From: Desulfobulbaceae bacterium | Lineage (GTDB): Bacteria > Desulfobacterota > Desulfobulbia > Desulfobulbales > SURF-16 | Reading direction: 5' to 3' | NCBI GenBank assembly: GCA_020444175.1 | Contig: JAHLLM010000032.1 | Span: 186 to 64,185 of the forward strand | DNA: 64,000 nt | Part shown: positions 5,231 through 58,846 of the stretch, one piece after another | Layout of the letters: every line of letters starts with the position of its first letter | Numbering within the stretch: the first letter of the stretch is position 1 | Translations under genes and position numbers: made by a program | The notes under the pieces: generated by a model | Told to the model about the DNA's origin: nothing | Database searches by the model: none | The model's input: only the letters and a program-made list of their open reading frames with translations

Positions 5231-5569
5231 TCACATTCCCGAAAAATTTGCCCGGATTGTTTCTCCTTCCAGGTTCAAAATCACATACAGAGTCTGTTTC
5301 TCCGTATCCTTTTCTTGCGGATTATGAAAGGCAACTTTCCAGTCACCATTATACTTATCCCGCATCCTCTTTTCGGCTTTTTCAGGTTTTACATCAGCCC
5401 AGGATGCATCGAGCTTGCCCTGTCGCACGAGTAAAGCAACGGTTTGGGAAGCGTTGGTGCGAAAAACTATCTCAGGGATCACCTCTTCACCGCCGCCGCC
5501 TCCTCCGGCATAGGACAGGACAGGCGAGACAGACAATAACATAATCAGCAAAACGATCATTCTGCGCAT
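5231..5569 (-). CDS. small exported protein, DUF6488-like
   Basis: Signal peptide; GKLDASW...W.V.F.N...QTLYV.L...G....ANFSG pattern recalled as DUF6488; last gene of the minus-strand cytochrome run. Confidence 0.6.
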   Translation of the reverse strand: MRRMIVLLIMLLSVSPVLSYAGGGGGGEEVIPEIVFRTNASQTVALLVRQGKLDASWADVKPEKAEKRMRDKYNGDWKVAFHNPQEKDTEKQTLYVILNLEGETIRANFSGM

Positions 5570-5600
5570 ACTCTTTTCCTTTTTTGATTTAAATGTGGAG

Positions 5601-7796
5601 TTAGGGTGCTTGGTCTCTCACTTCTTCTGTTACAATATCACTGGAATCGATTTCATCATCCCCTCCTGCAGACTCATCTACCTCCAACATTGTCAGTTTC
5701 AAATCCGCCTTGAAAACTTCAGGGGAGTCATCCTGTCCTTGCTCAGGGGATATTGAAAAATAAAAAACATATGTCCCCAACTCAAGCTCACTGGTGTCTC
5801 CATAGAAAATCGGTGATTCATCAAGATGAAAAAGTTTCCCATGGTACACCTGCGCTTCTTTTTCTTTTTCCCATTCGCCCTGCGGGGTAAGCCACCTTGC
5901 TATTCCGTCAGGAGCCACATACCATATCCTGAAAGTGGATGGTACTGGTCCGGTGACGTTCTCGATGGTCGCAGACAATGTGATCTTTTCACCCTGCCGG
6001 AGGACAATTTCACCTGTCTTTCCGTTCCCCAACAGAGAGGGCTGAGGCCGAACAGGCCCCGGGGCGTCCGGCTTCCTGACAGCCCAGACATGAAGCTCAA
6101 ATGATTCAGGATAATTTCGGGGCGTTCCCTGGCGAAAATTGTATGCCCAGGCATGATAAAGATTGAAAGTGTTCTCAACAGCTGTCCAATAGTCTCGGGG
6201 TATCAAATTCACAGCACCCTGACTGTTGAGCCATGCAGCCGGTTCGCCGTCTGCGGCTGCCATCAGATCTGCCAGCATGGACATCTCAGGAAGCTGCCAA
6301 TTTTCATAGCCGGCTGAATACTCCTCACACTTCAATTTCTCCGGAATGGTATTCAGCCACTCAATAACCTTGCCGGCATGCTTTTTCTTCTCCGGCTTAA
6401 AACAATTGCCGTCTTTAAGCCACATGAGTCCGGTAATATTATCCGTAAGCGTACCGTCACCGTTATCTGTAAAACGCTTGACCGGCCACTTCACTGCCAT
6501 GGCTGGCCCCAGGGTCTGGAGAAGATAGTAATCCGCCATTCTTGAAAGCGAGGTATCCACATCCTGCACTCTGGGTCGCTTGGTTCTTCCATCAGCATAT
6601 CGCACCGCCCAGACAGAACGTTTACTCATTTTATCAACGGCACTCAATTCACCTGACCCGAGAAAAACAGCATAGGCCGAGGAAGTCTGACTGGCAGCGG
6701 TTGTCGATGTCCAGTATCGGGGCTGCAGACCTATAAAAGGATTATCCGGTAGAGCGGGAAGGTCATTCCTGTGGTCAATAATGCTTCGCAATTCATTCCT
6801 GTTCGGCAAGGCCCAATCGGAAAAATTGACTGAAAGCTCCCGGCATTGAATTGTGTCCGCCCTCTTGTTAAAAAGGACAACTTCGCTCAAGGCTTCCTGC
6901 CAGGTACTCCTTCTTCCGAGGCAACCGGCATCTTTAAGCCACATGAGTCCGGTCCTGACATCAGTAACCGTACCATTGCCGTTATCAATAAAACGGGGTG
7001 TGTTATCCCGAGGAGCCGGAGTCGGTTCAAGGGTCTCATTCGGAGTTGTTGCCTCCCCTCTGCCGACAAGATCGGTTAATTTTTGCAGAATGCCGGAACC
7101 ATCCTTATCGTCCTGCACATCAACAGCATGGCCTCCTGCTTCTGCACTGTCATTTTTTTGCTGCTTTCGCACCAGAAGACAATAACGGAGTTCAACCCTG
7201 CTCACAGCTTCAACTCCTCCGGTATCAAAACGAAAGACCCATGAAGTATAGGGGTTGGGGGCAGTCGTTCGCGACCAGTAACCTGACGCCTGAATATTTC
7301 TGAAACGATGCCGGTTCAGCCAGTGGTCAGCAGAGGCTTCTTCTGCGTTAAACAAGGACTCAAGCTCTGTAATTTCCGGAACGGTCCAATCATCATAGAG
7401 AGAAACACCAGGGCAGGATTCACTCGTCATCTCAGTTGATTTTTCCGCAGTTTCCAAGGCACCATGCCAACTTAACCGCCCGAGACAGTTGCCGTTCTGA
7501 AGCCACATAAGTCCGGTGAGATTATCTGAAACAGTACCGTCCCCGTTATCCTTAAAGCGTGGCTCCGGCCAGACAACTCCGGCCTGCAGATCGCCATCCT
7601 GACCTGTTGCCGTATGCTCAACAACTTCTCCCTGCTGATCAAAACAGGAAAGCTGGCCGGTACGTGGAAGTTCGGCAAGGACATTTCCCACGCCAGAGAC
7701 AGTCATCAGGATGAAGCTGATTATGAAGGCCTTCAGAAGGCCGGGACAAAGACGTATCATTTTCAAGGCTATATACGCGTTTTGGCACCCGCGCAC
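5601..7796 (-). CDS. exported protein with three DUF1566 (Lcl C-terminal-like) repeats
   Basis: Three RF.DNG.GT..D..TGLMWL repeats, each followed by W..P...L and YW[ST] motifs; N-terminal hydrophobic segment; exact start uncertain. Confidence 0.8.
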   Translation of the reverse strand: MRGCQNAYIALKMIRLCPGLLKAFIISFILMTVSGVGNVLAELPRTGQLSCFDQQGEVVEHTATGQDGDLQAGVVWPEPRFKDNGDGTVSDNLTGLMWLQNGNCLGRLSWHGALETAEKSTEMTSESCPGVSLYDDWTVPEITELESLFNAEEASADHWLNRHRFRNIQASGYWSRTTAPNPYTSWVFRFDTGGVEAVSRVELRYCLLVRKQQKNDSAEAGGHAVDVQDDKDGSGILQKLTDLVGRGEATTPNETLEPTPAPRDNTPRFIDNGNGTVTDVRTGLMWLKDAGCLGRRSTWQEALSEVVLFNKRADTIQCRELSVNFSDWALPNRNELRSIIDHRNDLPALPDNPFIGLQPRYWTSTTAASQTSSAYAVFLGSGELSAVDKMSKRSVWAVRYADGRTKRPRVQDVDTSLSRMADYYLLQTLGPAMAVKWPVKRFTDNGDGTLTDNITGLMWLKDGNCFKPEKKKHAGKVIEWLNTIPEKLKCEEYSAGYENWQLPEMSMLADLMAAADGEPAAWLNSQGAVNLIPRDYWTAVENTFNLYHAWAYNFRQGTPRNYPESFELHVWAVRKPDAPGPVRPQPSLLGNGKTGEIVLRQGEKITLSATIENVTGPVPSTFRIWYVAPDGIARWLTPQGEWEKEKEAQVYHGKLFHLDESPIFYGDTSELELGTYVFYFSISPEQGQDDSPEVFKADLKLTMLEVDESAGGDDEIDSSDIVTEEVRDQAP

Positions 7797-7845: not shown

Positions 7846-8268
7846 TCATCTCAATTTTCCATGACAGGCAAAACATAATTTCAACCCAGGGGAGCGACGA
7901 AGATAAGAGGGATACAGATCAACCGCTTTACCCGCTCCATCGTGAAATTTGTGACAGGTCATGCAACCCATTCTTTTCTCAGCATCCAGCGGCATATCGT
8001 CCGGAACTTCCAGGCTCGGAACAATACCAATGGGATGGCTGAAATAACTTGATTCTCCCCCGGTTTTGCAGGGATAGGCGTCATGGCACCTTAAACATAT
8101 ATCCGACACATCGTCATGCAAGGTAAGAGGTCGATTTTCCAGGGGCAATGCAATATGACAGTCAAGGCATCTCACTGCACTGTTGTCATGAACAGACCCT
8201 GCAAAAAGAAGCCCCGGCCAGCAAAACACCGCAAGCATCCCGAAAAGAAATCCCCACCGCATCCTCAT
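7846..8268 (-). CDS. tetraheme c-type cytochrome
   Basis: Signal peptide; CLDCH, CLRCH, CMTCH, CFACH. Confidence 0.9.
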   Translation of the reverse strand: MRMRWGFLFGMLAVFCWPGLLFAGSVHDNSAVRCLDCHIALPLENRPLTLHDDVSDICLRCHDAYPCKTGGESSYFSHPIGIVPSLEVPDDMPLDAEKRMGCMTCHKFHDGAGKAVDLYPSYLRRSPGLKLCFACHGKLR

Positions 8269-8825
8269 AGCTTCAGTGCCTTCATCTCGTACTTCAATGC
8301 GGCAAGATAAGATTTGAGCGGTCCCAGTTCAACATCTTTTCCAGACTCCATAGCCTGGCACCTTTCGCGCATTTTTTCCGCAGAATCATGTAGTTTTTGA
8401 AGTCTTGATCGCATACTGCCGACCATGGCATCCACTTCATTTGAGAAATCCTGAAACTCATCATTTTCTCTGAGTTTCACCTTGCTCTGCAAATCTCCGT
8501 CGCCAATATTGCCTATTGCTCCGGCCATTTTTTTAAGCGGACCATCAATGCGGGCGAAAATCATTTTTGCTGTGAGAGCAAAAAGCAGGATAACCAGAAA
8601 AGCAGTAATAAGGGACGTTATAAGCATTTCCTCCCGGAGCAGTGAACCAACAGGGACATCGGGCAACCGCATGGAGTAAAGTGTGGCAGCAAGTTTTTTG
8701 CGGGCAAGATATCTGAAACAAAAAACAGAAACAACGCCGCCAGCCATTGAAGCCAAGGCAAAGCCGGCCATAAAACGCCCCTGTGCACCCTTGTCGATAA
8801 AATAATTTCTGCGTTTAAAAGACAT
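8265..8825 (-). CDS. two-TM HAMP-domain membrane protein
   Basis: KRRNYFIDK N-terminus, two hydrophobic helices, HAMP-like GPL...IGDGDL...LRENDEF, short coiled coil; overlaps the next gene by 4 nt. Confidence 0.75.
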   Translation of the reverse strand: MSFKRRNYFIDKGAQGRFMAGFALASMAGGVVSVFCFRYLARKKLAATLYSMRLPDVPVGSLLREEMLITSLITAFLVILLFALTAKMIFARIDGPLKKMAGAIGNIGDGDLQSKVKLRENDEFQDFSNEVDAMVGSMRSRLQKLHDSAEKMRERCQAMESGKDVELGPLKSYLAALKYEMKALKL

Positions 8826-8894
8826 AATGAATTCTTGTTTTAAATTTAGTCTGTTGAGCCCTAAGTCCTCAGCACTCAGCCCTAAGCTCTTTTT

Positions 8895-9722
8895 TTATTG
8901 ATCCAACATATGGCAGGCAAAACACAGGGCACTGTGTTGGTTGGCCATGACAAGATCGTTATCAAGGTGCGAATAGGGATCATGACATGATCCACAACCG
9001 ATTTTGCCCTCAAAAAACTGAATACGCTGATCAACCTGTTCCACTGGGCGCAAATCAGTCTTTCTGCCGTAACGAAGCCGAGCCTGTTCATAATCTATGC
9101 CAATTGGGTGCTTTCGCCCCATGCCATCGCCGATATAATCACTGCTGTGCTGCCATACTCCGGTACTGATAGAAACAGAAGATGCATAGGAGCCATCATG
9201 GCATGAAATACAATTTTTCGAAGTTTCGTCTATTTCCTGACCATAACTGGAAGAAATATATTCCGATTGGAAATGCGCCTCACCCAAGGCAAATTCATGC
9301 CCCATGGTGCCAGACAAACCGCTTTGACTGTGACAGATCAAACAGAACTCCCGACCACGCAACTGCCGCCGCAGAAAATAGGTTTTTTCTGACAGAGGAT
9401 CCATATTGCCAGCATGGACGTCATGGCATGTGGTGCAGACAATCAGGCCGTTTGGGGAAAGAGGCATATCCATGGGAATCACCACCTTGTCCGGACGAAC
9501 ATCATAGGGGTGCATAAATCCTGATTCCAGAATAGCGGCATGACAGTTATTACAGGCAAGTGTAGGACTTGATTGTCCGAGGGAAAGAGTAGATGACGGA
9601 TCTCCCTGATGGCAGATGACACACTGATTTTCATTGAAATCATGGGGATTCTTCTCCAGGCAAAAAACTATCAGCCACAGGAAGGCGACAAATAAAAGAG
9701 AAAAGAAGAATATTTTTTTCAT
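8895..9722 (-). CDS. heptaheme c-type cytochrome
   Basis: N-terminal hydrophobic helix; CVICH, CNNCH, CTTCH, CLICH, CISCH, CGSCH, CFACH. Confidence 0.92.
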   Translation of the reverse strand: MKKIFFFSLLFVAFLWLIVFCLEKNPHDFNENQCVICHQGDPSSTLSLGQSSPTLACNNCHAAILESGFMHPYDVRPDKVVIPMDMPLSPNGLIVCTTCHDVHAGNMDPLSEKTYFLRRQLRGREFCLICHSQSGLSGTMGHEFALGEAHFQSEYISSSYGQEIDETSKNCISCHDGSYASSVSISTGVWQHSSDYIGDGMGRKHPIGIDYEQARLRYGRKTDLRPVEQVDQRIQFFEGKIGCGSCHDPYSHLDNDLVMANQHSALCFACHMLDQ

Positions 9723-9756
9723 GTTAAAATCGAGTTGTCTATCTTAAAAATTATGT

Positions 9757-9931
9757 ATCTATTCAGCGAGGGCTCGAAATGGGCCTCTACTCCAGGCCGT
9801 AACTATTCAGATGTGCCTTAGATTTGGACAAGCAGGCCTGCGAGGCAGGTAAGCGAGCTTGCGAGACTCCGATAGCCCGTCTATGTGAGCAGGCCTGATC
9901 GTTCAAAGATGAGGTGCAGCTGAATAGTTAC
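9757..9931 (+). mobile_element. MITE family B (GTAACTATTCAG ends)
   Basis: GTAACTATTCAG (9799) ... CTGAATAGTTAC (ends 9931) plus a 5' extension; near-identical inverted copy at 53905-54055. Confidence 0.75.
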
Positions 9932-9935
9932 GAAA

Positions 9936-10520
9936 TTATAACTTATACTTCCCGGTCAGAGCGGAAATCATCTCTGCGCCCGCTCCGATTTTTTCTAAAA
10001 TCTCCCGGCGAGGCTGATCATCTTTCTCAAGAAGTGCAATTTGATTTTCAAGCTCCTCAATCTGCTGGTTGATATTTCCCAGACTTTGCCTGAAATTATC
10101 TGCCATGTTGTTCATCTCAAGTGCCAGAGGATGTATGACGTCACTCCGGCGCAGGGTTACATTTGTACTGATATCCCCATTACGGATCTGGCCGGCAAAG
10201 AGACCTAATCGGTAAATAGGCCCGGCGACACGATGGGAGTAGAGCATGGTCATCAGTACAATGCAGCACAGAGCCACCAGAACCGTACTGCCATAAATGA
10301 TCAGGGATTTATAAAAGATTTCCTGATCCAATTGAGCCAACATACGAAATCCCTCGCCATACGTCGGACCAATGGGCTCCTTCATCATCAGATAGAAAAT
10401 GACTGCGGTAGCCATGAGACCAGCAATAATGACAAGTGTGCATTTTATAACCACACTGCGCAGATAGGAACTATCAACAACCTGATTTGCTCTGGTATCA
10501 CTCACAATAGAATCTCCCAC
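9936..10520 (-). CDS. two-TM HAMP-domain membrane protein
   Basis: Two hydrophobic helices, SHRVAGPIYRL...GDI...LRRSDV HAMP-like segment, short coiled coil. Confidence 0.75.
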   Translation of the reverse strand: MGDSIVSDTRANQVVDSSYLRSVVIKCTLVIIAGLMATAVIFYLMMKEPIGPTYGEGFRMLAQLDQEIFYKSLIIYGSTVLVALCCIVLMTMLYSHRVAGPIYRLGLFAGQIRNGDISTNVTLRRSDVIHPLALEMNNMADNFRQSLGNINQQIEELENQIALLEKDDQPRREILEKIGAGAEMISALTGKYKL

Positions 10521-10649
10521 ATTTCAGTCTTTCAGCGTTAAGACTATCAGCAAAGGCCAGTTTGACCTCTTTTGCCGCTTGCACTCTTCAGGCAAACTTA
10601 ATATCGATTTGATATCCGGTTTTCCCATTCGAAACCAGCTTCAGACTCT

Positions 10650-11336
10650 TTATTTCCTTGCCTTACGGTCATAACTCCGGGGATCATGGCAACCGGGAGC
10701 ACAACTGCCCCCTGTTTCTGTCTTGGTAAAATTCACCGGCATTTCCCAATTTCCAAAAGCAACGACGTCTGCCATCATCTTGGGTTTATTTGCCCCATGC
10801 ACTCCATGACAAAGCTTGCAGCTTCTCCCCCTGTTTTCCTTGTTCACATGGAAAAAATGAAGATTTTTTGTGCCATCGCGAAAACCTGTTGAATACGAGG
10901 TGTCAGGAAACATCAACAGGTCCCTCTTATGGCAGGAAAAGCACAGCTTATAGGAATCCTCCTCTTTATAGTCGACGAACAATCTGACAAAACTACAATC
11001 AGCTAATAACAACTGTTTCAGTTCACCGTGGGGATTGTGGCATAAGTGGCAGCTTTTTTTGGTTACAGGCTCATGATTGTATTTAAAATCAAGGACAGAA
11101 TCATGGCATGGCGTACACATTTTTTCACTTAAAACGGTTTTTTTCTTTCCTTCCGCATGGCTGTCCTGAACATCAAGGTGACAGTCGGCGCAGGTAAATT
11201 CTGCGGGATGGGCTCCGTTCTTTGCTTGAAAATCAGCATGGCAGTCAGATGTCACACAACTCTGCTGAGCAAAGACAAAGCTGTTCAGCAGAAAGAAAAA
11301 AATAAAAGAAATGTTTATCAAAAGTAATTTTGGCAT
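10650..11336 (-). CDS. multiheme c-type cytochrome (5 CxxCH + CX4CH + CX3CH)
   Basis: Signal peptide; CVTSDCH, CADCH, CTPCH, CHLCH, CFSCH, CKLCH, CAPGCH; C-terminal half is paralogous to 12114-13430. Confidence 0.92.
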   Translation of the reverse strand: MPKLLLINISFIFFFLLNSFVFAQQSCVTSDCHADFQAKNGAHPAEFTCADCHLDVQDSHAEGKKKTVLSEKMCTPCHDSVLDFKYNHEPVTKKSCHLCHNPHGELKQLLLADCSFVRLFVDYKEEDSYKLCFSCHKRDLLMFPDTSYSTGFRDGTKNLHFFHVNKENRGRSCKLCHGVHGANKPKMMADVVAFGNWEMPVNFTKTETGGSCAPGCHDPRSYDRKARK

Positions 11337-11403
11337 AATGTAACTTCTCTGAATTCTTTAAATTCCCTGACTTCTTTAAATTCTCTACCGTCTTCCCATC
11401 ATC

Positions 11404-12018
11404 CTACTTCAAGAAATACGGGGTGTCGCCACCATGGGCATCATGGCAGTTGACACACTCCATGTTGTTTTTCATGACAAGTTTATGCATTTCAGAAGCC
11501 AACCTTTCTTCCTGGTGGCACTTGGAGCAGATATCGCTGACACTCTCTTTAAGCAAAGATTTATACCCGGAACTGTGGGGAAGATGACAGGCAAGGCAAT
11601 CCCTTACAGAGACTGGCCCATGCACGAATTTTCCCTGGACGAAATCCACATGACATATTTCACACAGCTGATCAGGGGGTGCGATAAGAAGATTCTTCTG
11701 CTTAAAATTATGGCAGCCCTGGCAATTTTTTTCCGCATAGGGGCGATGACTGGAGCCGGCAAAAACAACCTTTTCTTCTTCAATGTCTCCGGCTTCGGCC
11801 TCGGCGAGACGCTTTTCATAATAGGTATTAAACATATCCGCCATATTGTCCTCGCACAGCTGTTCCAAAGGAGGCAGATCAGGGACCCCATCAAAAGCGT
11901 TCGTCAATATTTTATGCCGTTTCAGGGGATCATGAGAGCAACCGACCAGGACAAGAACTCCTGAGCATATGAGTGCAAATAGAGGCAGTAAGCGTTTCAT
12001 GTATTTTATATATCGCAT
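11404..12018 (-). CDS. pentaheme c-type cytochrome lipoprotein
   Basis: Lipobox LVGC; CQGCH, CEICH, CLACH, CSKCH, CVNCH. Confidence 0.9.
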   Translation of the reverse strand: MRYIKYMKRLLPLFALICSGVLVLVGCSHDPLKRHKILTNAFDGVPDLPPLEQLCEDNMADMFNTYYEKRLAEAEAGDIEEEKVVFAGSSHRPYAEKNCQGCHNFKQKNLLIAPPDQLCEICHVDFVQGKFVHGPVSVRDCLACHLPHSSGYKSLLKESVSDICSKCHQEERLASEMHKLVMKNNMECVNCHDAHGGDTPYFLK

Positions 12019-12113
12019 GTTAATTTATATAAAAATTTCGGTTTTCAGATTCTTCACTCCGAACTCAGAACTTTCAGAAACCGTTGTGATCCTTTTCATG
12101 AAGAAACCATACA

Positions 12114-13430
12114 TCACTTGGTTGGCGGCGGGGTATAGATAATCTTGCGTTCCTTTTTCTCCCCGTCCGCCTTGTCACTATTATCGATATACTCCGCCCG
12201 GTCATAGCTCATCCCACGATGACAACCCGGCATACAGCTCCCTCCTGTTTCAGTGGTCTCGAAACGTATAGGAATTTTCCAATCACCGAATTTTATTCCA
12301 TCCGGATTGATCAATTTTTGCCCATTGCTTGCATGAACACTATGACAGGAACGGCAGGTACGACCTTTTTGAGCTCGTGCCACATGCCGGTAATGAAGGT
12401 TTTCGTCTCCATTTCGGAAATCAGTTTGATTTGTTGCCGTTTCCGAGGTCAGCAACTCTTTATCATGGCATTGAAAACAGAAATCATACAAATTTTCCTC
12501 ATAGGCAGCATAAAATGACTGAGGATACGATCCCTTTAAAATACTTGCATAGCTGTTCCCGTGGGGATCATGACAGGCAATGCACTCGCCGTCGGCAACA
12601 GGACCATGCACAACTTCCTTATCTTCGATATCGTTCCGGATATTCCTCAAGCCTTCGGAACGGTTTGAATTATCTTCTCCGTGACATCCGTAACAAAGAT
12701 TCTCCCCTTCCCGCATGAGCAGAGAGGAATAAGTCGAATAATGAGCAAGATGGCAGTTTCCGCATTGTCTCTCTATATACAGGGCCTTATGCTTGTTAAG
12801 AGAGCTGTCGTATTTGGCCTTTAAATTCTTATGGCAATCAAAACAAAGTTCGGTTCCCTTTTTCTTCAGGAGTTTCGGTTCAACGCTGCTATGGGGCATA
12901 TGGCAGGAACTGCAATCCAGTTTCTGGATGGCACTGTGAATAAATTTTGCATCACGCATACTCTGGTCAAAATCACTGTGACAGCCAAGGCATATTTCCT
13001 GGAGAGGCATTCTCAGCAGGCTCTTCTGCTCGGAATCATGAGGATCGTGACAGGTCATGCAGGCACCCGACGCAGCCGGTCCATGTTTGTATCGGTTATT
13101 GAATTCAGTGTCGTCATGGCATGTAAAACAGAGAGAACCGCCCTTCGAAGTCAGGATAAAATCCCCCCCCTGTCCGGATGGATGGACTTCCTTCTGCTTC
13201 TGGTGGCAGCTAAGGCATTCATCTTCGGCTACCGGAGAATGTACAAACTGCTTTTGGCCTATTTCAGTATGGCAGCCATTAGAAATACATGCCGCCTGAA
13301 CCGGAAGCGGCAATGTAATAAAACAAACCACAAAGACACAAAGGCACAAAGAAAAAACGAACAGGCTTTGTGGCTGTGTGTCTTTGTGGTAACGCAGAGT
13401 CTTATATTTCAGATGGATATCAAAATGCAT
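12114..13430 (-). CDS. multiheme c-type cytochrome (11 CxxCH + CX4CH + CX3CH)
   Basis: Start moved to ATG 13430 (AAGGAAG upstream, removes overlap with the preceding gene); signal ending VQA; paired CxxCH..H motifs. Confidence 0.9.
   Translation of the reverse strand: MHFDIHLKYKTLRYHKDTQPQSLFVFSLCLCVFVVCFITLPLPVQAACISNGCHTEIGQKQFVHSPVAEDECLSCHQKQKEVHPSGQGGDFILTSKGGSLCFTCHDDTEFNNRYKHGPAASGACMTCHDPHDSEQKSLLRMPLQEICLGCHSDFDQSMRDAKFIHSAIQKLDCSSCHMPHSSVEPKLLKKKGTELCFDCHKNLKAKYDSSLNKHKALYIERQCGNCHLAHYSTYSSLLMREGENLCYGCHGEDNSNRSEGLRNIRNDIEDKEVVHGPVADGECIACHDPHGNSYASILKGSYPQSFYAAYEENLYDFCFQCHDKELLTSETATNQTDFRNGDENLHYRHVARAQKGRTCRSCHSVHASNGQKLINPDGIKFGDWKIPIRFETTETGGSCMPGCHRGMSYDRAEYIDNSDKADGEKKERKIIYTPPPTK
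13327..13390. repeat. 64-bp palindromic element inside a signal-peptide coding region
   Basis: ACCACAAAGACACAAAGGCACAAAG ... CTTTGTGGCTGTGTGTCTTTGTGGT; arms pair at 23 of 25 positions. Confidence 0.7.
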
Positions 13431-13440
13431 ACTGACTTCC

Positions 13441-14403: not shown

Positions 14404-14566
14404 CACATGATTGTTGACAAAAAAACAAGGTAATGTCAAGTTTATAGCAATATGAAAGCGGTTTTTAAAACTCTGATTTCACATGCTAACTTTGACTTGA
14501 GTTCTCAATTTCGTATACTGTATTTATGGCAGCATATTTTCCACTTAACACATGTAAAGAGATCCC

Positions 14567-43058: not shown

Positions 43059-43077
43059 GGACTGAGAGTAAAATATT

Positions 43078-51910: not shown

Positions 51911-52744
51911 TTATCTAGCAGGCTGCAAGACATCCTTTATTCGAATCTCAAACAGCCTGCTCCATCGCTTCCCGGTAACGTAGATCCGCTCATGATCCGC
52001 ATCATAAGCTATGCCGTTCAAAACGTTGTCATTTCCGTCAGGGGCAGCCTCCGCAACAAGCTTTTCAAGATCAATCCAGCCTGTAACCTTCCCGGTACCA
52101 GGATCAATGCGGACAATGCGATTTTCCTGCCATATATTCGCCCACACTTCATTATGAATATATTCGAGCTCATTAAGTCGAGTCAGAGGGATATCATTTT
52201 CAGTGACTAAAATTTTCTTTTCCAATTCAAACCTGTCCGGATCCAGAAAAAAAAGCATTGAGCTCCCATCACTCATGATTAAATGACGACCATCATGGGT
52301 AATTCCCCATCCCTCTCCAGGGTAGGAAAAGAGCCTGATAAGCTCCAACTTTTTTTTATCCCAGACAAGACCCACCTTTGATTTCCATGTGAGCTGTATG
52401 ATTGTATCTTTAAAAACCGTTATCCCTTCACCAAAAAAATGCTTTGGCAGCAAACGAATCTGCAAATCTTCACCGGTTAATTTCATCCGCCGAAGAGATG
52501 AGAATCCATACAGCCCTGTCCCCTCATAGAGCACACCATCAGCAAAACAAAGCCCCTGGGTGAAAGCTCCCTGATCATGGGGTTTGGATGAAATCACCTC
52601 ATAGTCATACTGGACCGGGACGCTTGCTTCTCCTTGTGCCACAGGACAGCCTCCCCACGGTAAAAACATCCAAAACAGGAGGTGAAAAAAGTAAAACAGG
52701 GTGGTTCTTCTCCAAGTCATCAAACATTTAGGTCCAGTTAACAT
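51911..52744 (-). CDS. glutaminyl-peptide cyclotransferase (bacterial/plant-type glutaminyl cyclase)
   Basis: HD..AFTQGL, LYEGTGLYG, FFGEGIT, GEGWGIT, LNELEY, VLNGIAYD, VTGKRW. Confidence 0.93.
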   Translation of the reverse strand: MLTGPKCLMTWRRTTLFYFFHLLFWMFLPWGGCPVAQGEASVPVQYDYEVISSKPHDQGAFTQGLCFADGVLYEGTGLYGFSSLRRMKLTGEDLQIRLLPKHFFGEGITVFKDTIIQLTWKSKVGLVWDKKKLELIRLFSYPGEGWGITHDGRHLIMSDGSSMLFFLDPDRFELEKKILVTENDIPLTRLNELEYIHNEVWANIWQENRIVRIDPGTGKVTGWIDLEKLVAEAAPDGNDNVLNGIAYDADHERIYVTGKRWSRLFEIRIKDVLQPAR

Positions 52745-52880: not shown

Positions 52881-53480
52881 TTATTTATTCTTACCGCGCA
52901 GACCTCTAAGACCAAGCAAGCCTGCTCCCAACATCCAGACCGCACCTGGCAGAGGAACAGGGGAGGTACTTCCCGGCGCCGGAAGGTTAAGACTTGCCTC
53001 TATCCAATCGAGGCCTTCAAGAGAAAAATCTGCAAGCTCAAAATAAATATCACCTGTTTGACTGAAACCGTAAAATGGGTCGGTTGTAGCATAGATTGAC
53101 CAATCAGTGCCTGCGACACCATCAACAGTGGCACCCCACCAATCCAGTTCAAAACCGTCAATAACGCCATCGCTAAAATGAGCAGTTGGATTATCCCCAG
53201 TATGCGGTGATGATTGAGTCAGCCTCAGACCATCAAAATCAATAGTCATGGAGCTCAATGTCAAAAATGTCTCCCCTACAGAACTGACGGCACCATCCGC
53301 CCACCCTAAGGTCACGGAGAGAGGGGAACTATATGTAATTCCAGTCAGTGTACTGTCCCAGATGTCGTCGACCTGGCCATTTAAAGTTACAGACCCGGCA
53401 CTGGCCTGTGAGGCAGAGAGAAGCATCAGGACTGCGATTGTGGAAAAAATCTTTTTTGTACTGATTTTTTTTGTATTCAT
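52881..53480 (-). CDS. exported protein with VPLPA-CTERM (PEP-CTERM-like) sorting signal
   Basis: Start ATG 53480 (GGAG); signal peptide; C-terminal PVPLPGAVWMLGAGLLGL-RGLRGKNK. Confidence 0.88.
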   Translation of the reverse strand: MNTKKISTKKIFSTIAVLMLLSASQASAGSVTLNGQVDDIWDSTLTGITYSSPLSVTLGWADGAVSSVGETFLTLSSMTIDFDGLRLTQSSPHTGDNPTAHFSDGVIDGFELDWWGATVDGVAGTDWSIYATTDPFYGFSQTGDIYFELADFSLEGLDWIEASLNLPAPGSTSPVPLPGAVWMLGAGLLGLRGLRGKNK

Positions 53481-53554
53481 TTTAGTCTCCTTCTTTTTCT
53501 TTTGTATCAAACGAATAATGTCTTTATACCCTTGGTCATTTTTCATTGTGTAAA

Positions 53555-53904: not shown

Positions 53905-54055
53905 GTAACTATTCAGCTGCACCTCATCTTTGAACGATCAGGCCTGCTCACATAGACGGGCTATAGCCTTGCAGGCCTGCTTGTTCAAATCTAAGGCACA
54001 TCTGAATAGTTACGGCCTGGAGTTGAGGCCCATTTCGAGCCCTCGCTGAATAGAT
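53905..54055 (-). mobile_element. MITE family B
   Basis: Inverted copy of 9757-9931 with an internal deletion; TAAAAAAACT on both sides. Confidence 0.75.
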
Positions 54056-54084: not shown

Positions 54085-54729
54085 CTACCAGACACCGCCA
54101 AAATTAAAGGCAACATCTTCAAGGAGGTCTCCACCTGCACTCCATAACGCGAGGTCGACTCCATCAACATCCTGATCAGTATCCTGATCACCAGCCACAA
54201 GGGGAGGCACAGCACCAGGAGGGAATTCAAGATGGCCTTCAAACCAGGCACTCGTGGCTGAATATTCATCAATAAATTCCCATTGCATCTGGGTATCCCC
54301 ACCACTTGCCAGCCCAGAAACATAAACCAGCCAGGTGTTACGAGTCGATCCATTTACTGAAGCGTCATACCAATACAATTGAAACTCATCAAGAATGCCA
54401 TCAACAAATGTGGCATACGGAAGCGCTCCTATGTGCGAATGAGAGCTGGTCAAGGACAATCCGCCAACTGTGAAATTAAAAGTATTCCCCCAATCAGGGT
54501 TGAAATTAACCACTGAGACACCTTGAGCTGCTATAATGGAATCATTGTTCCAGCTTAACTCCAGAGACACAGGAGAAGCCAACGTTACGCCCGTCGTTCC
54601 CGGGCTCTCGATATAATCGACGGCACCATCCAGAATAAGACTACCGGCACCAGCGTTCGTGGCAACGAGAAACATCAAAGTGCTGATAAAGGCAAACAGC
54701 TTCACTTCAGAAAATTTTCTCAACTTCAT
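54085..54729 (-). CDS. exported protein, paralog of 52881-53480, with a dockerin/EF-hand-like tail
   Basis: Signal peptide; GAGG RBS; C-terminal GDQDTDQDVDGVDLAL...NFG. Confidence 0.8.
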   Translation of the reverse strand: MKLRKFSEVKLFAFISTLMFLVATNAGAGSLILDGAVDYIESPGTTGVTLASPVSLELSWNNDSIIAAQGVSVVNFNPDWGNTFNFTVGGLSLTSSHSHIGALPYATFVDGILDEFQLYWYDASVNGSTRNTWLVYVSGLASGGDTQMQWEFIDEYSATSAWFEGHLEFPPGAVPPLVAGDQDTDQDVDGVDLALWSAGGDLLEDVAFNFGGVW

Positions 54730-55208: not shown

Positions 55209-56639
55209 TTACATGCTTCTCCCTATGTCCTGCATGCCAAACTTTTTGATGCGATAGCGAAGTGTGTCACGGGACATCTTTAAACACTGGGCAGCTTTTG
55301 TCTGGTTGCCGTTATAACGCTCAAGAGCCTGCTCAATGAGCTGCCTTTCAACCTCTTCGATGGAGATTCCTTCGGGCGGCAGATTGATATAACCGTCTTT
55401 CCCCACCGCAAATGCCTGTCCGCCTTCCCCTGCTATCGCCGGCCCGGAAACTTCAGAAACACAGTCCCGGATCTCACGGCTGAAATAATCAGGGGTCAGC
55501 TGTGCTTCAATTTCAAGCATCATGGCCCTTTCCATGGCATTGCGCAGTTCACGAACATTGCCGGGCCACTCATAGCGCTGCAGGCAACGAAGGGCTTCCG
55601 GAGTAATTCCTTCAACACCGCGGCCATACTCTTCATTAAGCCTGCCGATAAAGTAATTTGCCAGGGCCGGGATATCCTCTTTGCGTTCTCTCAGGGGAGC
55701 AAGAGGAAGGGTCATGACATTGAGGCGGAAAAAGAGATCCCCTCTAAAGGTGCCTTCCTTGACCATGCCGGGCAAATCCTGATTGGTTGCGGCAATAATC
55801 CTCACGTCAACATCAATATCCCGCGCACCACCGAGACGTCGAAACTGTTGGGAATCAATAACCTTTAAGATTTTGGCCTGCATGGGCAGAGGCATGTCAC
55901 CGATCTCATCTAAAAAGACCGTACCGCCTTCAGCCGCCTCAAATATTCCCTTATGACTTTTCGAGGCATCGGTATAAGCACCTCTTTCATGCCCAAAAAG
56001 CTCATTTTCCAGCAAATTATCGGGGATTGCCGCACAGTTCAGCTCAATAAAAGGCTCCTGGGACCTGGCGCTGTGATAATGCACGGCCCTGGCAACGAGC
56101 TGCTTGCCGGTACCAGACTCACCGAGCACCAGAACAATCTTGGCATCCGTTTCAGCGCAGACCTTGATCATCTTAAAGACTTCAATCATCTTTGAAGAAT
56201 TGCCGATAAGATTGTCATAATCATATTTCTTGCGCAATTCCCGTCTGAAAAAACTCACTTCCTTGCGCAGCTTTTTCTTTTCAAAAGACTGTTCAACAAC
56301 ATGCTTGATATTTTCAATATCAAAAGGCTTGCCAATGTAGTCATCCGCCCCGAGCTTCAGGGCGTTAACGGCTGAGTCGGCATCTGCATAAGCAGTAATC
56401 ATGACAACAACGACGTCTTCATCCAGCTCCTTGAATTCACCAAGCAACTCAACTCCATTGGCATCGGGGAGACGAACATCGAGCAGGACCATTTCCGGGT
56501 TGAATTCACTAAACGTTGCCCTGGCTTCAGCTCCACTCATTGCAGTCTGAACGGCAAAGCCAGCATCGGTGAGCATCTGGCTCAGTGACCAACAAACCAG
56601 TTTTTCGTCATCAACTACAAGTACACGATGTTCTCTCAT
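55209..56639 (-). CDS. sigma54-dependent response regulator (NtrC family: REC, AAA+, Fis-HTH)
   Basis: VLVVDDE..LLDVRLPD receiver; GESGTGKQ, ELFGHERGAYTDA, FLDEIGD, WPGNVREL; NQTKAA..L..SR.TLRY. Confidence 0.96.
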   Translation of the reverse strand: MREHRVLVVDDEKLVCWSLSQMLTDAGFAVQTAMSGAEARATFSEFNPEMVLLDVRLPDANGVELLGEFKELDEDVVVVMITAYADADSAVNALKLGADDYIGKPFDIENIKHVVEQSFEKKKLRKEVSFFRRELRKKYDYDNLIGNSSKMIEVFKMIKVCAETDAKIVLVLGESGTGKQLVARAVHYHSARSQEPFIELNCAAIPDNLLENELFGHERGAYTDASKSHKGIFEAAEGGTVFLDEIGDMPLPMQAKILKVIDSQQFRRLGGARDIDVDVRIIAATNQDLPGMVKEGTFRGDLFFRLNVMTLPLAPLRERKEDIPALANYFIGRLNEEYGRGVEGITPEALRCLQRYEWPGNVRELRNAMERAMMLEIEAQLTPDYFSREIRDCVSEVSGPAIAGEGGQAFAVGKDGYINLPPEGISIEEVERQLIEQALERYNGNQTKAAQCLKMSRDTLRYRIKKFGMQDIGRSM

Positions 56640-56804
56640 GAGTTCTCTCTGTATATAAATCACGCTCTTCTTCTCAAGCATGCAGTTCAAGGATTCTCAG
56701 CTACTGAGAAAAAAGCGTCTTTCACGGTTTGAGTGCTTTAACCAATTGATAATCTACGAGTTATCACATCACTCTATTATGATATATGAAGTTTACCATA
56801 AAGA

Positions 56805-58790
56805 TCAAGGTCTGCATACTGGAAGGCAGACAATAAAATTTGATCCCACCTCCGGCTCGCTCTCAACAATTATCGTCCCACCATGCTGCTCCAGAATACG
56901 ATGCGATATTGAGAGGCCAAGCCCTGTCCCATTGCCTTTTGTTGTATGAAATGGATTAAAAATCATTTCCATGGAGTCAGGATCAATACCGCTGCCGGTG
57001 TCCTGGACAGCTACTTTGAAATAGCCATTCATTGAACGGCACGAGGGACTCATGCACTCATTCCTGCTGCGGATAGTGCCTGACTCCTTATCCAGATAGC
57101 TGCGAATCGTCAGAACTCCATCCTTGCCCATGGAATCTATGGCATTCAAAACAATATTGAGAAAAACCTGCTGCAGCTGCCCGTCATCGCCTTGCACAAT
57201 AGGAGCATCCGACTCATAACTCTCAATCACCTTTATTTCTTTATCATCGATGCGGGGTGCTGAAAGGAAAAGAGCCTTTTTAACGATGGCAATCAAATCA
57301 ACCTCGGAAAACTGAGACTGGCCGGGCTTGGCAAATTGCAACAGGCTGTTAATGAAATTGTCGAGGCGCTTTACCTGACTCTGCACCTCATTAAATATAA
57401 GTTGATTTGTGTCGCCCTGGTCAAAATTGCGGGCCAGTATCTGCATGGCTCCGGAAATTCCAGCCAGCGGGTTTTTTATCTCATGGGCCATGCCGGCTGC
57501 CATCTCTCCAAGGGAAGCCAGCTTATCAACCCTGGCAAGATCCTGCTCAAGAACTTTTTTTGCCGTAATATCCCGGAAGATACAGCTTAATCCGGTAACA
57601 GTATCCGAACTGTCAGTAATGACGGAAAAACAGACCTCGGACGGAAAAAGATCGCCGCTCTTTTTCTTCATCGGCACCTCTGAAAGATGCCCCATTGTAT
57701 TATCCATTTCATCCGCAGCATCAAGAAAAAGGCATTTTTTCCCATCCATTGGTGAAAGAAAATCATCCAGAGGCTTTGACAGCATCTCTTCTCTTTTGTA
57801 GCCGAGTATTATCTCCGCAGCCTTATTGACATCAGTAATTTTCATGAATTGATCTACAGTTATCAAGCCACTGCGGAGATTCTGAATAATACTCTCATAA
57901 AAACTTTTCAGGTATTCAATCTCAGCCAGTTGCCGGGCAATCTTCCTGAGCATGCTTTTTTGCTTCAAAGCTCTGCCTATGGCCAAGGCAGAATGGCTGG
58001 CAATGGCAGAGGAAAGTCTGATTTCCTCATAACTCACTGGCTGGTTAGTAAATGCCTTGTCAGCAAGAACATACCCATAAAAATCGTTATTATCACAGAT
58101 TGGCAGGATGAGAAAAGAACTCACATCCCCCATGAGGAATTTAACCGTCTTATCATGGGCATCTAAATCCATCACCGAGAAATGACGAAAACGGGAATAC
58201 TTTTTAAGCTCTACATCTTCGGAAGCAAAATCAGGGACGCAGAGATTGACCCGCTGCCTTCTGTTCTGCCGGTTGCCACTTCCTCTGTAATCATCCCGAA
58301 GTATCCCGCAGGTGCGCGGTACTGTCTGGTCTGCCTCTGGCAAATCGGAAAAGCCGACAACATTGAGCGGTTCCTGTTCTGTGTACACTTTGCGCAACAA
58401 GCCGTTGACCTGTTGAAAATCAACACTGAAAGGACGCTTGCCAACCTCCTTGAAACCATAAAAAACCTGGGTTTCCAAATTCCTTCCCTGTTCGTCAAGC
58501 TTCAGGACCAAAACCCGTTCGAGCTCAGTACAACTGACAATATCCTCGACAAGATAATCCATCAATACCATTACTTCATCAGATCTGCCCATACGCCTTG
58601 CACTGCGGTAAAGCGAACGCAGATCAGTAACTGTTCTTTCCACGAGTCCTTCCCTCTTATCGTTAACTCTCAATAAACCAAGTAAATCCTGCAGCCATTC
58701 ATTCTTTCCTTCACAAAGAGACATTGCCTGTCTCTCATTTATGCGGCATGGATATATGGCAGCTTCACGACTTTTAGCAACCGCATTCAA
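56805..58790 (-). CDS. cytoplasmic sensor histidine kinase (GAF-like, PAS, HisKA, HATPase)
   Basis: AHEIKNPL H-box, QVFLNIVLNA, DTGSGI, IFNPFHTTK, GTGLGL; PAS VNKAAEIILGY; no obvious TM helix; start uncertain. Confidence 0.93.
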   Translation of the reverse strand: MNAVAKSREAAIYPCRINERQAMSLCEGKNEWLQDLLGLLRVNDKREGLVERTVTDLRSLYRSARRMGRSDEVMVLMDYLVEDIVSCTELERVLVLKLDEQGRNLETQVFYGFKEVGKRPFSVDFQQVNGLLRKVYTEQEPLNVVGFSDLPEADQTVPRTCGILRDDYRGSGNRQNRRQRVNLCVPDFASEDVELKKYSRFRHFSVMDLDAHDKTVKFLMGDVSSFLILPICDNNDFYGYVLADKAFTNQPVSYEEIRLSSAIASHSALAIGRALKQKSMLRKIARQLAEIEYLKSFYESIIQNLRSGLITVDQFMKITDVNKAAEIILGYKREEMLSKPLDDFLSPMDGKKCLFLDAADEMDNTMGHLSEVPMKKKSGDLFPSEVCFSVITDSSDTVTGLSCIFRDITAKKVLEQDLARVDKLASLGEMAAGMAHEIKNPLAGISGAMQILARNFDQGDTNQLIFNEVQSQVKRLDNFINSLLQFAKPGQSQFSEVDLIAIVKKALFLSAPRIDDKEIKVIESYESDAPIVQGDDGQLQQVFLNIVLNAIDSMGKDGVLTIRSYLDKESGTIRSRNECMSPSCRSMNGYFKVAVQDTGSGIDPDSMEMIFNPFHTTKGNGTGLGLSISHRILEQHGGTIIVESEPEVGSNFIVCLPVCRP

Positions 58791-58830
58791 AATCGTGTTT
58801 CAAAGACATGATGACGTGCTGAGAGTTAAC

Positions 58831-58846
58831 AGCAAGAAATGTACCT
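58831..58846 (-). promoter_or_regulatory. possible sigma54 promoter of the kinase/regulator pair
   Basis: AGGTACATTTCTTGCT = GG-N10-GC. Confidence 0.55.

Follow-up and report, generated by a model that had tools for sequence, protein, structure and literature searches.

Two families of large selenocysteine-containing cytochromes of the OTR superfamily, recurrently encoded beside OmcE nanowire gene clusters

Introduction

What is encoded by a 54-kb cytochrome-rich island in a Desulfobulbaceae bacterium, and what do its two largest cytochromes, each encoded by a frame with an in-frame TGA codon, have to do with the OmcE nanowire gene cluster beside them? The window, i.e. the whole stretch of DNA analysed here, comprises 64,000 nt of assembly GCA_020444175.1 (contig JAHLLM010000032.1, positions 186–64,185 of the forward strand), and the island occupies window positions 5231–58846. 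An original prediction, made from the DNA letters of this stretch, had read the island as one self-contained, co-regulated system of undescribed composition, which combines an OmcE-like wire with two selenocytochromes. We find that these two proteins, termed SeMHC1 and SeMHC2, represent two large, mis-annotated selenocysteine (Sec) families of the octahaem tetrathionate reductase (OTR) superfamily, unrelated to the Sec enzyme MccSep, which have a tail in common and are repeatedly encoded beside genes for the OmcE nanowire and its outer-membrane conduit in sulfur- and metal-respiring Desulfobacterota.

The two families, their shared tail and this recurrent placement are new, whereas the cluster of OmcE, NHL, barrel and PPIase genes, the existence of Sec-containing multihaem enzymes (MccSep) and an annotated Sec form of OTR were already known. 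The predicted novelty of the combination is accordingly upheld only as far as the selenocytochromes and their association with the cluster are concerned, and withdrawn for the OmcE/NHL/barrel/PPIase part, which had been published before. In the literature we found no description of large PKD-tailed Sec cytochromes, with the limit that Data S1/S2 of PMC13510729, outside the available passages of that paper, may show them beside OmcE clusters. A first demonstration of selenium-dependent haem catalysis in respiration came as late as 2026, with MccSep, a small enzyme of the periplasm (PMC13510729). Provided that the link to the conduit is functional, the present families would constitute a dedicated catalytic end-piece for extracellular electron transfer, offer a molecular route to attack insoluble sulfur, and provide a defined context for cytochromes of the OTR type, which have so far lacked a clear physiological role. 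Cultured carriers comprise Malonomonas rubra DSM 5091, several Geomonas species and Geotalea toluenoxydans, as well as Thiovibrio sp. JS02 for the SeMHC1 family.

Results and Discussion

Two multihaem cytochrome genes contain a conserved in-frame TGA

SeMHC1 (17045–21433, minus strand) is a predicted protein of 1462 residues with a signal peptide, eight CxxCH haem motifs, Sec152 encoded by the TGA at 20978–20980, and a PKD-like tail. SeMHC2 (30839–34450, plus strand; 1203 residues) has the same general layout, with a signal peptide, nine CxxCH and one Cx4CH motif, of which eight haem motifs are conserved, Sec125 encoded by the TGA at 31211–31213, and again a PKD-like tail. Each of the long frames contains a single in-frame TGA. 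The loop around it, SPG-x-x-G-K-[W/Y]-U-P-P-S-x-R-Q, is located between haem motifs 1 and 2, is nearly invariant and is near-identical in both paralogs. The PKD-like tail is common to four island proteins, namely SeMHC1, SeMHC2, the cytochrome at 48469–50601, whose tail matches that of SeMHC2 with an E-value of 5.9e-20, and the secreted protein at 50766–51821.

Database searching with SeMHC2 yielded 78 proteins, most of them covering only the part after the TGA; two full-length homologs carry Cys (P0047) and Asp (P0043) at the Sec site. Among 40 related genomes we obtained eight amino-terminal matches in seven genomes, all eight with one TGA. The family is small, as among 1.84 billion representatives only 51 reach E ≤ 1e-30. 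A scan of one genome per species gave 51 loci, found in Desulfobulbia, in Desulfuromonadales (Malonomonas rubra DSM 5091, Desulfuromonas, Desulfuromusa), in Geobacteraceae comprising at least eight named Geomonas species and Geotalea toluenoxydans, and in one metagenome-assembled genome (MAG) of the Thiobacillaceae. The Sec-site pattern was recovered in 40 frames from 36 of the 51 loci: 39 of these frames have exactly one TGA, situated at the site, and read through to 900–1300 residues with a signal peptide, and the remaining one has Asp. The other 15 loci, some of them cut by contig ends, gave no match to the pattern and stand outside this count; one of them (L075) has a degenerate site with another stop. 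Malonomonas rubra DSM 5091 carries four SeMHC2-family genes close together, one separated by another cytochrome gene (L057; NZ_FQZT01000002.1); three have TGA and the fourth tandem copy has Asp at the site, and the group adjoins homologs of the 5-haem lipoprotein, of NHL2 and of the 11+1-motif cytochrome described below.

For SeMHC1 we obtained 87 database homologs, mostly annotated from just after the TGA. Two full-length homologs have Cys at the site (P0106 and P0110), a count that leaves aside four full-coverage homologs without a match to the Sec-site pattern (P0146, P0154, P0157, P0158). The TGA is retained in the relatives G009, G018, G024, G004 and G012, corresponding to five of the seven amino-terminal matches outside the window, while the remaining two, on contig C33 of G018 and on contig C37 of the own genome, contain no stop. 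The latter (G000:C37:146118–150305), which is one of the two full-length Cys forms, is a paralog of SeMHC1 with an open frame of 1397 residues, and Sec and Cys forms of this family hence coexist in one organism. As public annotation splits the genes at the TGA and labels the pieces 'PKD domain-containing' or 'hypothetical', both Sec families have been invisible in it.

A covarying hairpin and a complete Sec machinery argue for Sec decoding

A hairpin resembling a selenocysteine insertion sequence (SECIS), with six base pairs and a four-nucleotide apical loop that reads AGUU in most copies, is located 13 nt after the TGA. It maps to 20952–20967 on the minus strand for SeMHC1 and to 31224–31239 on the plus strand for SeMHC2, the latter copy having a variant stem. 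Across 40 distinct sequences, in which columns 14–19 of the alignment A2 pair with columns 24–29, 91.7% of the cells are paired, and two of the pairs show compensatory types (UA/GC and CG/AU). We counted 13 double changes compared with 2.7 in shuffled alignments, and none of 500 shuffles reached 13. The own genome encodes the Sec machinery above cut-offs, with selB at 367.8, selA at 621.9, selD at 379.1 and tRNA-Sec at 67.2 bits, and its selD gene itself contains a TGA.

The public gene calls admit another reading, in which the TGAs are true stops and each locus comprises two genes, one for a monohaem protein of 125–152 residues and one for a large cytochrome; the start of most database homologs just after the TGA would be in line with it. 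This reading is extremely improbable. In 39 of 40 frames, which come from distant taxa, the TGA occupies one and the same column of an alignment that is strongly conserved to either side of it; there are full-length Cys and Asp homologs, the hairpin covaries, the genome has the complete Sec machinery, and the OTR profile, described in the next section, aligns without a break at the TGA over all of haems 1 to 8. The features expected of selenoprotein genes, i.e. a conserved in-frame UGA, Cys homologs at the site, a downstream stem-loop, and selA, selB, selD and tRNA-Sec, were all found. The two predicted selenocytochromes are therefore, as judged from comparative sequence evidence, almost certainly genuine Sec enzymes.

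SeMHC1 and SeMHC2 resemble much-expanded OTR cytochromes

We compared both families by hhalign with a profile built from 18 OTR-family sequences of the order. The SeMHC2 family aligned with a probability of 96.9% (E 1.7e-10) over 407 columns, covering OTR positions 1–456 of 478, and the SeMHC1 family with 98.3% (E 1.7e-14) over 454 columns (query 1–885, template 1–463). In both cases all eight CxxCH motifs are colinear with those of OTR, in the same order along its whole length. A second, built-in profile comparison with OTR gave 91%. An AF2 model of SeMHC2 residues 26–945 reached an average pLDDT of 73.5 and a pTM of 0.80, and a VIA structural search of 48,161 chains with this model returned a single chain at Z ≥ 2, the Shewanella oneidensis OTR 1SP3_A (Z 8.7, rmsd 4.9), with 347 of its 436 residues aligned and the alignment spanning model residues 2–910. 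When the same model was searched against the PDB with Foldseek, nothing reached E ≤ 0.001, and the top row was again 1SP3_A (E 0.027). The uniqueness of this fold match is meaningful because OTR, as far as the available passages of the respective preprint state, is a structural outlier among multihaem enzymes, with its catalytic haem in the amino-terminal module (bioRxiv 10.1101/2022.02.24.481543). The Sec loop of the SeMHCs, between haems 1 and 2, would fall into this very module. Sec in an OTR fold also has a precedent, since a 2026 review lists an OTR-family form with Sec among GenBank annotations (PMC13188914).

Several results weigh against this relationship or against its extension to the active site. 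A search of both proteins against NCBIfam, including TIGR04315, gave no match for P0001 at E ≤ 0.01 and a weak unrelated domain only for P0002, and no chain was matched when the SeMHC sequence was compared with the PDB sequences. Searching the PDB sequences with the profile of alignment A3 brought up PKD domains alone, without any relative among the cytochromes. In the AF2 model, the Sec loop has a pLDDT of about 30. Furthermore, the SeMHC1 alignment places the G-K preceding Sec on the G-K of the OTR loop, whereas the SeMHC2 alignment puts the loop elsewhere, and the Lys two residues before Sec is replaced by Ser or Asn in the Geobacteraceae members. The OTR loop in question is the source of the Lys ligand and of a nearby Cys of the catalytic haem; this haem 2 is reported by Mowat et al. 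(2004) to be Lys-ligated. Because the loop is poorly modelled and the two alignments place it differently, we can only infer a position of Sec at the catalytic haem.

On balance, we hold with good confidence that both selenocytochromes are much-expanded octahaem members of the OTR superfamily; in the absence of a match to the TIGR04315 model they are to be regarded as superfamily relatives and not as members of that family. They have 2.5 to 3 times the size of OTR and differ from it by their long insertions and the PKD-like tail, by two further carboxy-terminal haem motifs in SeMHC2, by a Sec-loop sequence unlike the OTR loop, and by a gene neighbourhood that consists of an OmcE and porin cluster. 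A separate canonical OTR is encoded in the same genome (G000:C90:3277–4584; TIGR04315, 579 bits), which also encodes three 12-haem OTR-like proteins.

Comparison with MccSep

MccSep is, according to the available passages of its description, a polysulfide reductase combining Sec and haem, which acts on polysulfide and selenite and shows no activity with nitrite or nitrate; it has five haems and about 49 kDa, carries its Sec in a carboxy-terminal Ig-like domain and forms a periplasmic tetramer (PMC13510729). The SeMHCs resemble this enzyme, known as MccSep/ExtKL (Geobacter sulfurreducens GSU2937-2936; NF040886; PDB 9WT8), in being multihaem c-type cytochromes of Desulfobacterota with one TGA-encoded catalytic Sec, at which gene callers split the gene, and, going by the passages at hand, in having a Pro after and an Arg five residues after Sec. 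In contrast, the Sec of the SeMHCs is amino-terminal and part of an OTR-type octahaem core. Neither protein matched NF040886, no PDB sequence match to 9WT8 was obtained, and no ExtKL was found above cut-off in the own genome. The SeMHCs are hence not MccSep/ExtKL. The residues that follow Sec read U-P-P-S-x-R in the SeMHCs and U-P-T-P-N-R in MccSep (the latter as given in the passages of PMC13510729) in spite of unrelated folds, a likeness that could stem from convergent active-site loops or be imposed by the SECIS.

The right part of the island encodes an OmcE cluster

The predicted OmcE-like wire locus is borne out by a protein of 282 residues with four haems and a signal peptide (36979–37827, minus strand), which matches PDB entries 7TFS_A (E 4e-17) and 9YUQ_N (E 4.5e-14) and aligns to solved OmcE over both halves, 9YUQ_N being the OmcE bundle of Desulfuromonas soudanensis. 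It is followed on the plus strand by the NHL β-propeller lipoprotein NHL1 (38363–39703; Pfam NHL E 2.2e-12; lipobox ILSGC), whose homolog in the G018 cluster is 78% identical, by an MtrB-like outer-membrane β-barrel of 699 residues (39716–41815), by the SurA/PpiC-like foldase SurA3 (41847–43058; Pfam Rotamase_2 and SurA_N_3), by the second lipoprotein NHL2 (43078–44157; Pfam NHL E 1.4e-20; lipobox AFTGC), and by three cytochromes with, by haem motif count, 11+1 (44154–45866), 11+2 (46275–48449) and 9+2 motifs (48469–50601), the last of which carries the PKD tail matching that of SeMHC2. The barrel, which ends in Phe, had no Pfam, NCBIfam or PDB sequence match; its AF2 model is all-β with about 30 long strands (pLDDT 72.3), and the best Foldseek match is MtrB of the Mtr complex (6R2Q_B, E 2.2e-9). 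Look-alikes in the protein atlas are unnamed clusters, with a weak lead to Porin_4 at 0.89.

The minimal OmcE cluster, as delineated in 2026 in PMC13712944, consists of OmcE, a large barrel, two multihaem cytochromes and two β-propeller lipoproteins. Genes for glycosylation and for TPR proteins often follow it, and it occurs in a subset of genomes only, where conserved genes enclose it. The right module of the island has all of these parts, with four CxxCH motifs in its OmcE homolog and three multihaem cytochromes, and is very probably such a cluster. It shares with the clusters of Desulfuromonadia (G. sulfurreducens, Desulfuromonas soudanensis) the core genes, the insertion between housekeeping genes, the restriction to some genomes and, as is often the case there, TPR and glycosyl-transfer genes nearby (PMC13712944, passages available). 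The present cluster differs in its location in a Desulfobulbales genome, between the PFOR and TyrRS genes, and in its company of three SurA-like foldases, sulfotransferases, a GT41 enzyme in place of the GT2/4/39 enzymes mentioned in those passages, and two selenocytochromes. Selenocytochromes are unmentioned in the text passages of PMC13712944, whose Fig. 4D and supplement may show them. By composition only, the island also resembles the Uet complex of Ca. Tenderia electrophaga, with its undecahaem 'doubled CXXCH' cytochrome, extracellular tetrahaem cytochrome, PPIase, β-barrel and NHL protein (PMC10734462), and the clusters of Desulfovibrio ferrophilus IS5, with NHL proteins and outer-membrane cytochromes (PMC5815863); both have been proposed to serve electron uptake, and the passages available of the two papers report no selenoprotein.

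Cleavage of the OmcE homolog after AQA, if it takes place, would leave Gln as mature amino terminus. The island also codes for a secreted glutaminyl cyclase (51911–52744, minus strand; Pfam PF05096 E 4.7e-94), which is retained even in the reduced island of the relative G001, and an amino-terminal pyroglutamate on the filament subunit is a possibility.

Selenocytochromes and OmcE clusters recur together

We analysed the genes within 10 kb of the 51 SeMHC2 homologs in other genomes, 16 of these loci being shorter than 12 kb. Any gene of the OmcE module was found at 18 of the 51 loci, including Geomonas and Malonomonas. Individually, the most frequent neighbours were the SurA2-type foldase (19/51), the 11+1-motif cytochrome (15/51), and, with 14/51 each, NHL2 and the HAO-like octahaem cytochrome cyt8 described further below, followed by a sigma54-type regulator (12/51), the 5-haem lipoprotein (11/51), NHL1 (10/51) and OmcE (8/51). 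No homolog of the barrel at E ≤ 1e-10 was found at any of the 51 loci. The TPR sulfotransferase and GT41 genes, which we had considered as conserved partners of SeMHC2, were absent as well (0/51) and are ruled out as such.

In Geomonas paludis, G. diazotrophica and several MAGs of Geobacteraceae and Desulfuromonadales, the 11+2-motif cytochrome, OmcE, NHL1, the 5-haem lipoprotein, NHL2, the 11+1-motif cytochrome, in part cyt8, and the selenocytochrome follow each other on one strand. This order shows that genes divided between the left and right modules of the window are elsewhere contiguous with a selenocytochrome gene. SeMHC1, in turn, shares the PFOR/TyrRS island with the OmcE cluster in both G009 and G018. 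Modules of the island are thus found together in other genomes, at 18 of 51 loci and in the same island of two family relatives, where a complete lack of co-occurrence would have spoken against the original prediction. At the genome level, 10 of the 40 relatives contain a selenocytochrome of either family and nine contain OmcE, with seven having both and 28 neither; OmcE is accordingly present in seven of the 10 relatives with and in two of the 30 without a selenocytochrome, figures to be read with the caveat that these kin are not independent.

These data have to be weighed against a chance neighbourhood, in which the PFOR/TyrRS site is a hot spot that gathered independent cytochrome modules, and the selenocytochromes, as OTR-like enzymes of the periplasm, have an HAO-like partner and a foldase to themselves and function without any link to the OmcE and porin system. 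OTR is indeed located in the periplasm. In the closest relatives the conserved core consists of the MFS/spermidine-synthase-like gene, the response regulator, SurA2, cyt8 and SeMHC2 on a contig without OmcE genes, 33 of the 51 loci have no OmcE-module gene within 10 kb, and rearrangement could be driven by the dispersed repeats in which this genome abounds. Three relatives have a selenocytochrome and no OmcE match (G004, G016, G025), and two have OmcE and no selenocytochrome (G030, G035). MccSep is periplasmic as well (PMC13510729, passages available). On the other hand, SeMHC1 is inside the OmcE island in G009 and G018, at the Geomonas, Geobacteraceae and Desulfuromonadales loci the genes for OmcE, NHL proteins and cytochromes are directly followed by a co-oriented SeMHC2 gene, one tail domain is common to four island proteins, and selenocytochromes and OmcE co-occur across genomes as given above. 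We consider the chance neighbourhood unlikely, and propose on the basis of the combined synteny a physical or functional coupling of the selenocytochromes to the conduit, of which functional coupling is only mildly favoured by us.

Proposed mechanism, substrate and location

Taken as a whole, the data are best explained by Sec-dependent terminal oxidoreductases built on an OTR scaffold, encoded in a mosaic island and wired to the OmcE conduit, an account that we regard as reasonably probable. In this model, the right module would provide a cytochrome wire together with a conduit for electrons across the outer membrane, made up of OmcE, the NHL lipoproteins, the MtrB-like barrel, a SurA-like foldase and periplasmic as well as outer cytochromes, and the left module would supply further multihaem cytochromes, whose genes are interleaved with OmcE-cluster genes in other lineages. 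The two paralogous giant selenocytochromes, with the eight OTR haems in order, large insertions and the PKD-like tail, would act as the catalysts: the Sec selenolate, a nucleophile placed at the amino-terminal catalytic haem, would attack the S–S or Se–O bond of polysulfide, elemental sulfur, tetrathionate or selenite, and the adduct would be resolved by electrons travelling along the eight-haem chain. Electrons would be exchanged with the cell via the HAO-like octahaem cytochrome, the periplasmic cytochromes, the barrel and the OmcE system, and expression would probably proceed from sigma54 promoters under control of the kinase/regulator pair of the island. The Sec-dependent sulfur or selenium mechanism is proposed on the grounds of the MccSep chemistry, the tetrathionate activity of OTR and the sulfur- and metal-respiring lineages of the carriers. 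By this analogy, we tentatively propose a sulfur or selenium compound as substrate.

Nitrogen compounds would be possible substrates as well, as OTR reduces nitrite and hydroxylamine and an HAO-like protein is encoded next to SeMHC2. In this alternative, the selenocytochromes and the HAO-like octahaem cytochrome form a detoxifying or respiratory reductase pair acting on nitrite, hydroxylamine or NO. The neighbour in question, cyt8 (27335–28546, plus strand), usually encoded upstream of SeMHC2, has eight CxxCH motifs and matches PDB entries 4QO5_A (E 6.1e-22) and 1FGJ_A (E 1e-19); by its similarity to solved members and its haem count it belongs to the HAO/IhOCC family, with 403 residues compared with 500–580 in the solved members, and it adjoins SeMHC2 also in G009 and G018. 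The reduction of nitrite and hydroxylamine by OTR in vitro reportedly goes back to Atkinson 2007, a reference listed in PMC8840924. Against the nitrogen-oxide alternative, no nitrite or hydroxylamine reductase is known to require Sec, and the named carriers belong to Desulfuromonas, Malonomonas, Desulfocapsa, Desulfurivibrio and Geomonas, genera known for sulfur or iron respiration. Moreover, the one characterised enzyme that combines Sec and haem takes polysulfide and selenite and is, in the available passages of its description, inactive with nitrite or nitrate (PMC13510729). We therefore consider a nitrogen-oxide reductase pair very unlikely.

With regard to location, the characterised analogues OTR and MccSep are both periplasmic, so that an extracellular position of the selenocytochromes is not implied by their relationship, and we consider it doubtful. 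A more specific version, in which the selenocytochromes are the surface-exposed catalytic heads of the OmcE/porin wiring, i.e. OTR-derived Sec enzymes docked by the shared PKD-like tail that reduce or oxidise selenium species, polysulfide or solid elemental sulfur, either extracellularly or where a cytochrome filament ends, is decidedly unlikely in our view. If true, it would represent the first selenoenzyme to serve as terminal catalyst of an extracellular electron-transfer chain, and a candidate for the component that occupies the tip or the base of OmcE nanowires, about which PMC13712944 raises the question.

The island is a mosaic inserted between PFOR and TyrRS

Gene calls were redone for the window, haem motifs were counted per open reading frame (ORF), and Pfam and NCBIfam scans provided the inventory. 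Within 5231–58846 we counted 13 ORFs with at least two CxxCH motifs, totalling 104 CxxCH and 10 Cx3-4CH motifs, identical to the number of multiheme cytochromes and motifs originally predicted. The predicted set of accompanying genes was likewise recovered: both NHL proteins by Pfam, each with a lipobox; one large predicted barrel, the 699-residue protein with MtrB as best fold match; three SurA/PpiC-like foldases by Pfam; as modifying enzymes two TPR-sulfotransferases, a TPR-GT41 protein, a fused MFS/spermidine-synthase-like protein and the glutaminyl cyclase; and the sigma54-type response regulator with a PAS histidine kinase. Housekeeping genes flank the island as had been stated, with PFOR on the left (1205–4750) and TyrRS (59193–60410) and RNase Y (60539–62113) on the right.

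The corresponding site of G004, from the same family, contains a hexapeptide transferase, PFOR, TyrRS and RNase Y with a gap of ~1.8 kb between PFOR and TyrRS, and represents the empty site. In G009, the same site contains PFOR, the Lcl_C gene, the whole left cytochrome module, the MORN and SurA1 genes, SeMHC1, a PKD cytochrome, a TPR-sulfotransferase and OmcE, and in G018 it contains SeMHC1, a PKD cytochrome, OmcE, NHL1, the barrel, SurA3, NHL2 and three cytochromes, with TyrRS further on the same contig. The MFS/spermidine-synthase-like gene, the response regulator, SurA2, cyt8 and SeMHC2 are located on a different contig from the OmcE island in both G009 and G018, which counts against a single system. 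Since both genomes keep the SeMHC2 module apart from the rest, the island is divisible, a mosaic composed of three or more modules. The stretch is a true insertion relative to its kin, located between PFOR and TyrRS and best explained with three modules, and its description as self-contained is not supported.

In G001, from the same genus, the PFOR–TyrRS interval has kept only the kinase, regulator and cyclase genes, along with short pieces of the Lcl_C gene and of two cytochrome genes. This remnant (L086; G001:C34:4866–10217) has the kinase in three frame pieces, and PFOR is split too; the reduced island reflects either decay after deletion or poor sequence of this MAG.

Intergenic repeats of 110 nt are located at 5106–5215 and 24147–24256, and repeats of 56 nt at 9755–9810, 24327–24382, 28646–28701 and about 54002–54055. 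We considered these repeats at module junctions as island-specific recombination sites and ruled this out, as both are dispersed genome-wide, with at least 42 and at least 40 matches listed out of 211 and 152 first-look candidates, respectively. In the contigs of the RNA libraries described below, both families stand out by numerous loose ends and a very high depth of words. They may explain part of the large genome size (5.4 Mb versus 2–4.5 Mb in relatives).

Regulation and expression

The sigma54-dependent response regulator (55209–56690) and the PAS histidine kinase (56805–58790), both on the minus strand, are retained beside TyrRS in G001. Sigma54-type −24/−12 motifs are located about 170 nt upstream of SeMHC1 (21601–21615, minus strand) and of SeMHC2 (30654–30668, plus strand), and a sigma54-like motif precedes the OmcE homolog on its strand (37960–37974). 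The three matches thus lie 130–190 nt upstream of their genes on the correct strand. The 5' regions of SeMHC1 and SeMHC2 are alike, including an identical 12-nt stretch before the ATG. Upstream of SeMHC2 homologs the motif was found in 11 of 39 cases, compared with 0 of 39 antisense windows and nine of 264 coding windows. Against these findings, a scan of the whole window was not above chance, with eight matches versus 5.78 expected and 21 of 100 shuffles reaching eight. Placement and homolog comparison together are suggestive; the motifs fit the sigma54-dependent regulator of the island without showing co-regulation, and with a mosaic island the predicted single co-regulated system is not supported.

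In four RNA-seq libraries from one freshwater-sediment study, 31–47% of the sampled SeMHC2 words are present. The library contigs cover 28–30 of the 30 bins of 27300–47299 with no differences, and coding regions and genes for cytoplasmic proteins are covered alike. As these data are contigs, with possible DNA carry-over and a depth that cannot rank genes, they permit no conclusion on transcription or co-expression.

Left module, island edges and modifying enzymes

The left cytochrome module (7846–14439), all on the minus strand, has the same gene order in G009. It comprises a 4-haem protein (7846–8268), a protein of 186 residues with a transmembrane segment and a HAMP-like stretch (8265–8825), the 7-haem cyt7 (8895–9722), a similar membrane protein of 194 residues termed unk194 (9936–10520), a 5+2-motif cytochrome (10650–11336), the 5-haem lipoprotein cyt5lipo (11404–12018), an 11+2-motif DmsE/MtrA-like cytochrome (12114–13634; NCBIfam TIGR03508 at 158.8 bits, below the cut-off of 192), and a 12-haem cytochrome (13441–14439). 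The cytochromes of this module gave Pfam matches to Paired_CXXCH_1, c3 and c7. Homologs of cyt5lipo, cyt7, unk194 and the 11+2-motif cytochrome adjoin selenocytochrome genes in other taxa. The two small membrane proteins, interleaved with the cytochromes, consist only of the transmembrane segment and the HAMP-like stretch, and their homologs accompany cyt7 and the 5-haem lipoprotein beside selenocytochromes at the loci L055, L065, L070 and L085.

At the left edge of the island, two minus-strand genes encode a small secreted DUF6488 protein (5231–5569; Pfam PF20098 E 1.2e-15) and a secreted protein of 731 residues with three Lcl_C repeats (5601–7796; PF07603 E 2.4e-58, three stretches), the latter gene adjoining PFOR in G009 too. 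Between the left module and SeMHC1 are located a MORN-repeat lipoprotein (14567–15544, plus strand; Pfam MORN E 8.8e-43; lipobox LASGC) and the SurA/PpiC-like foldase SurA1 (15712–16800, minus strand; Pfam SurA_N_3 and Rotamase_2), which are syntenic in G009. Near SeMHC2, the fused MFS/spermidine-synthase-like membrane protein (24416–25858, plus strand; NCBIfam NF037959 at 159 bits, cut-off 40) and the SurA/PpiC foldase SurA2 (25968–27044, minus strand; Pfam Rotamase_3 E 6.5e-34) are kept beside the SeMHC2 homologs of G009 and G018.

Towards the right edge, the secreted protein of 351 residues with the PKD-like tail (50766–51821, plus strand) belongs to repeat family D5, and two minus-strand genes encode secreted proteins without family or Pfam match, one of 221 residues (52881–53546) and one at 54085–54729. 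The 221-residue protein ends in Pro-Leu-Pro-Gly, a hydrophobic stretch and an Arg/Lys-rich tail, which together resemble a PEP-CTERM-type sorting signal. The best NCBIfam match of the NHL proteins is also a 'VPEP' PEP-CTERM protein (ScyF), below cut-off.

Three cytoplasmic TPR enzymes are encoded on the plus strand: TPR-sulfotransferase 1 (22502–24142; Pfam Sulfotransfer_3 E 4.7e-46 and TPRs), of which a 57% identical homolog adjoins OmcE in G009, the O-GlcNAc-transferase-like TPR-GT41 enzyme (28707–30440; Pfam PF13844 E 5.1e-62), and TPR-sulfotransferase 2 (34607–36724; Pfam Sulfotransfer_3 E 3.8e-41 and TPRs). All three have a similar Lys/Arg-rich amino-terminal stretch ahead of the TPRs, suggesting a common origin or a common localisation signal.

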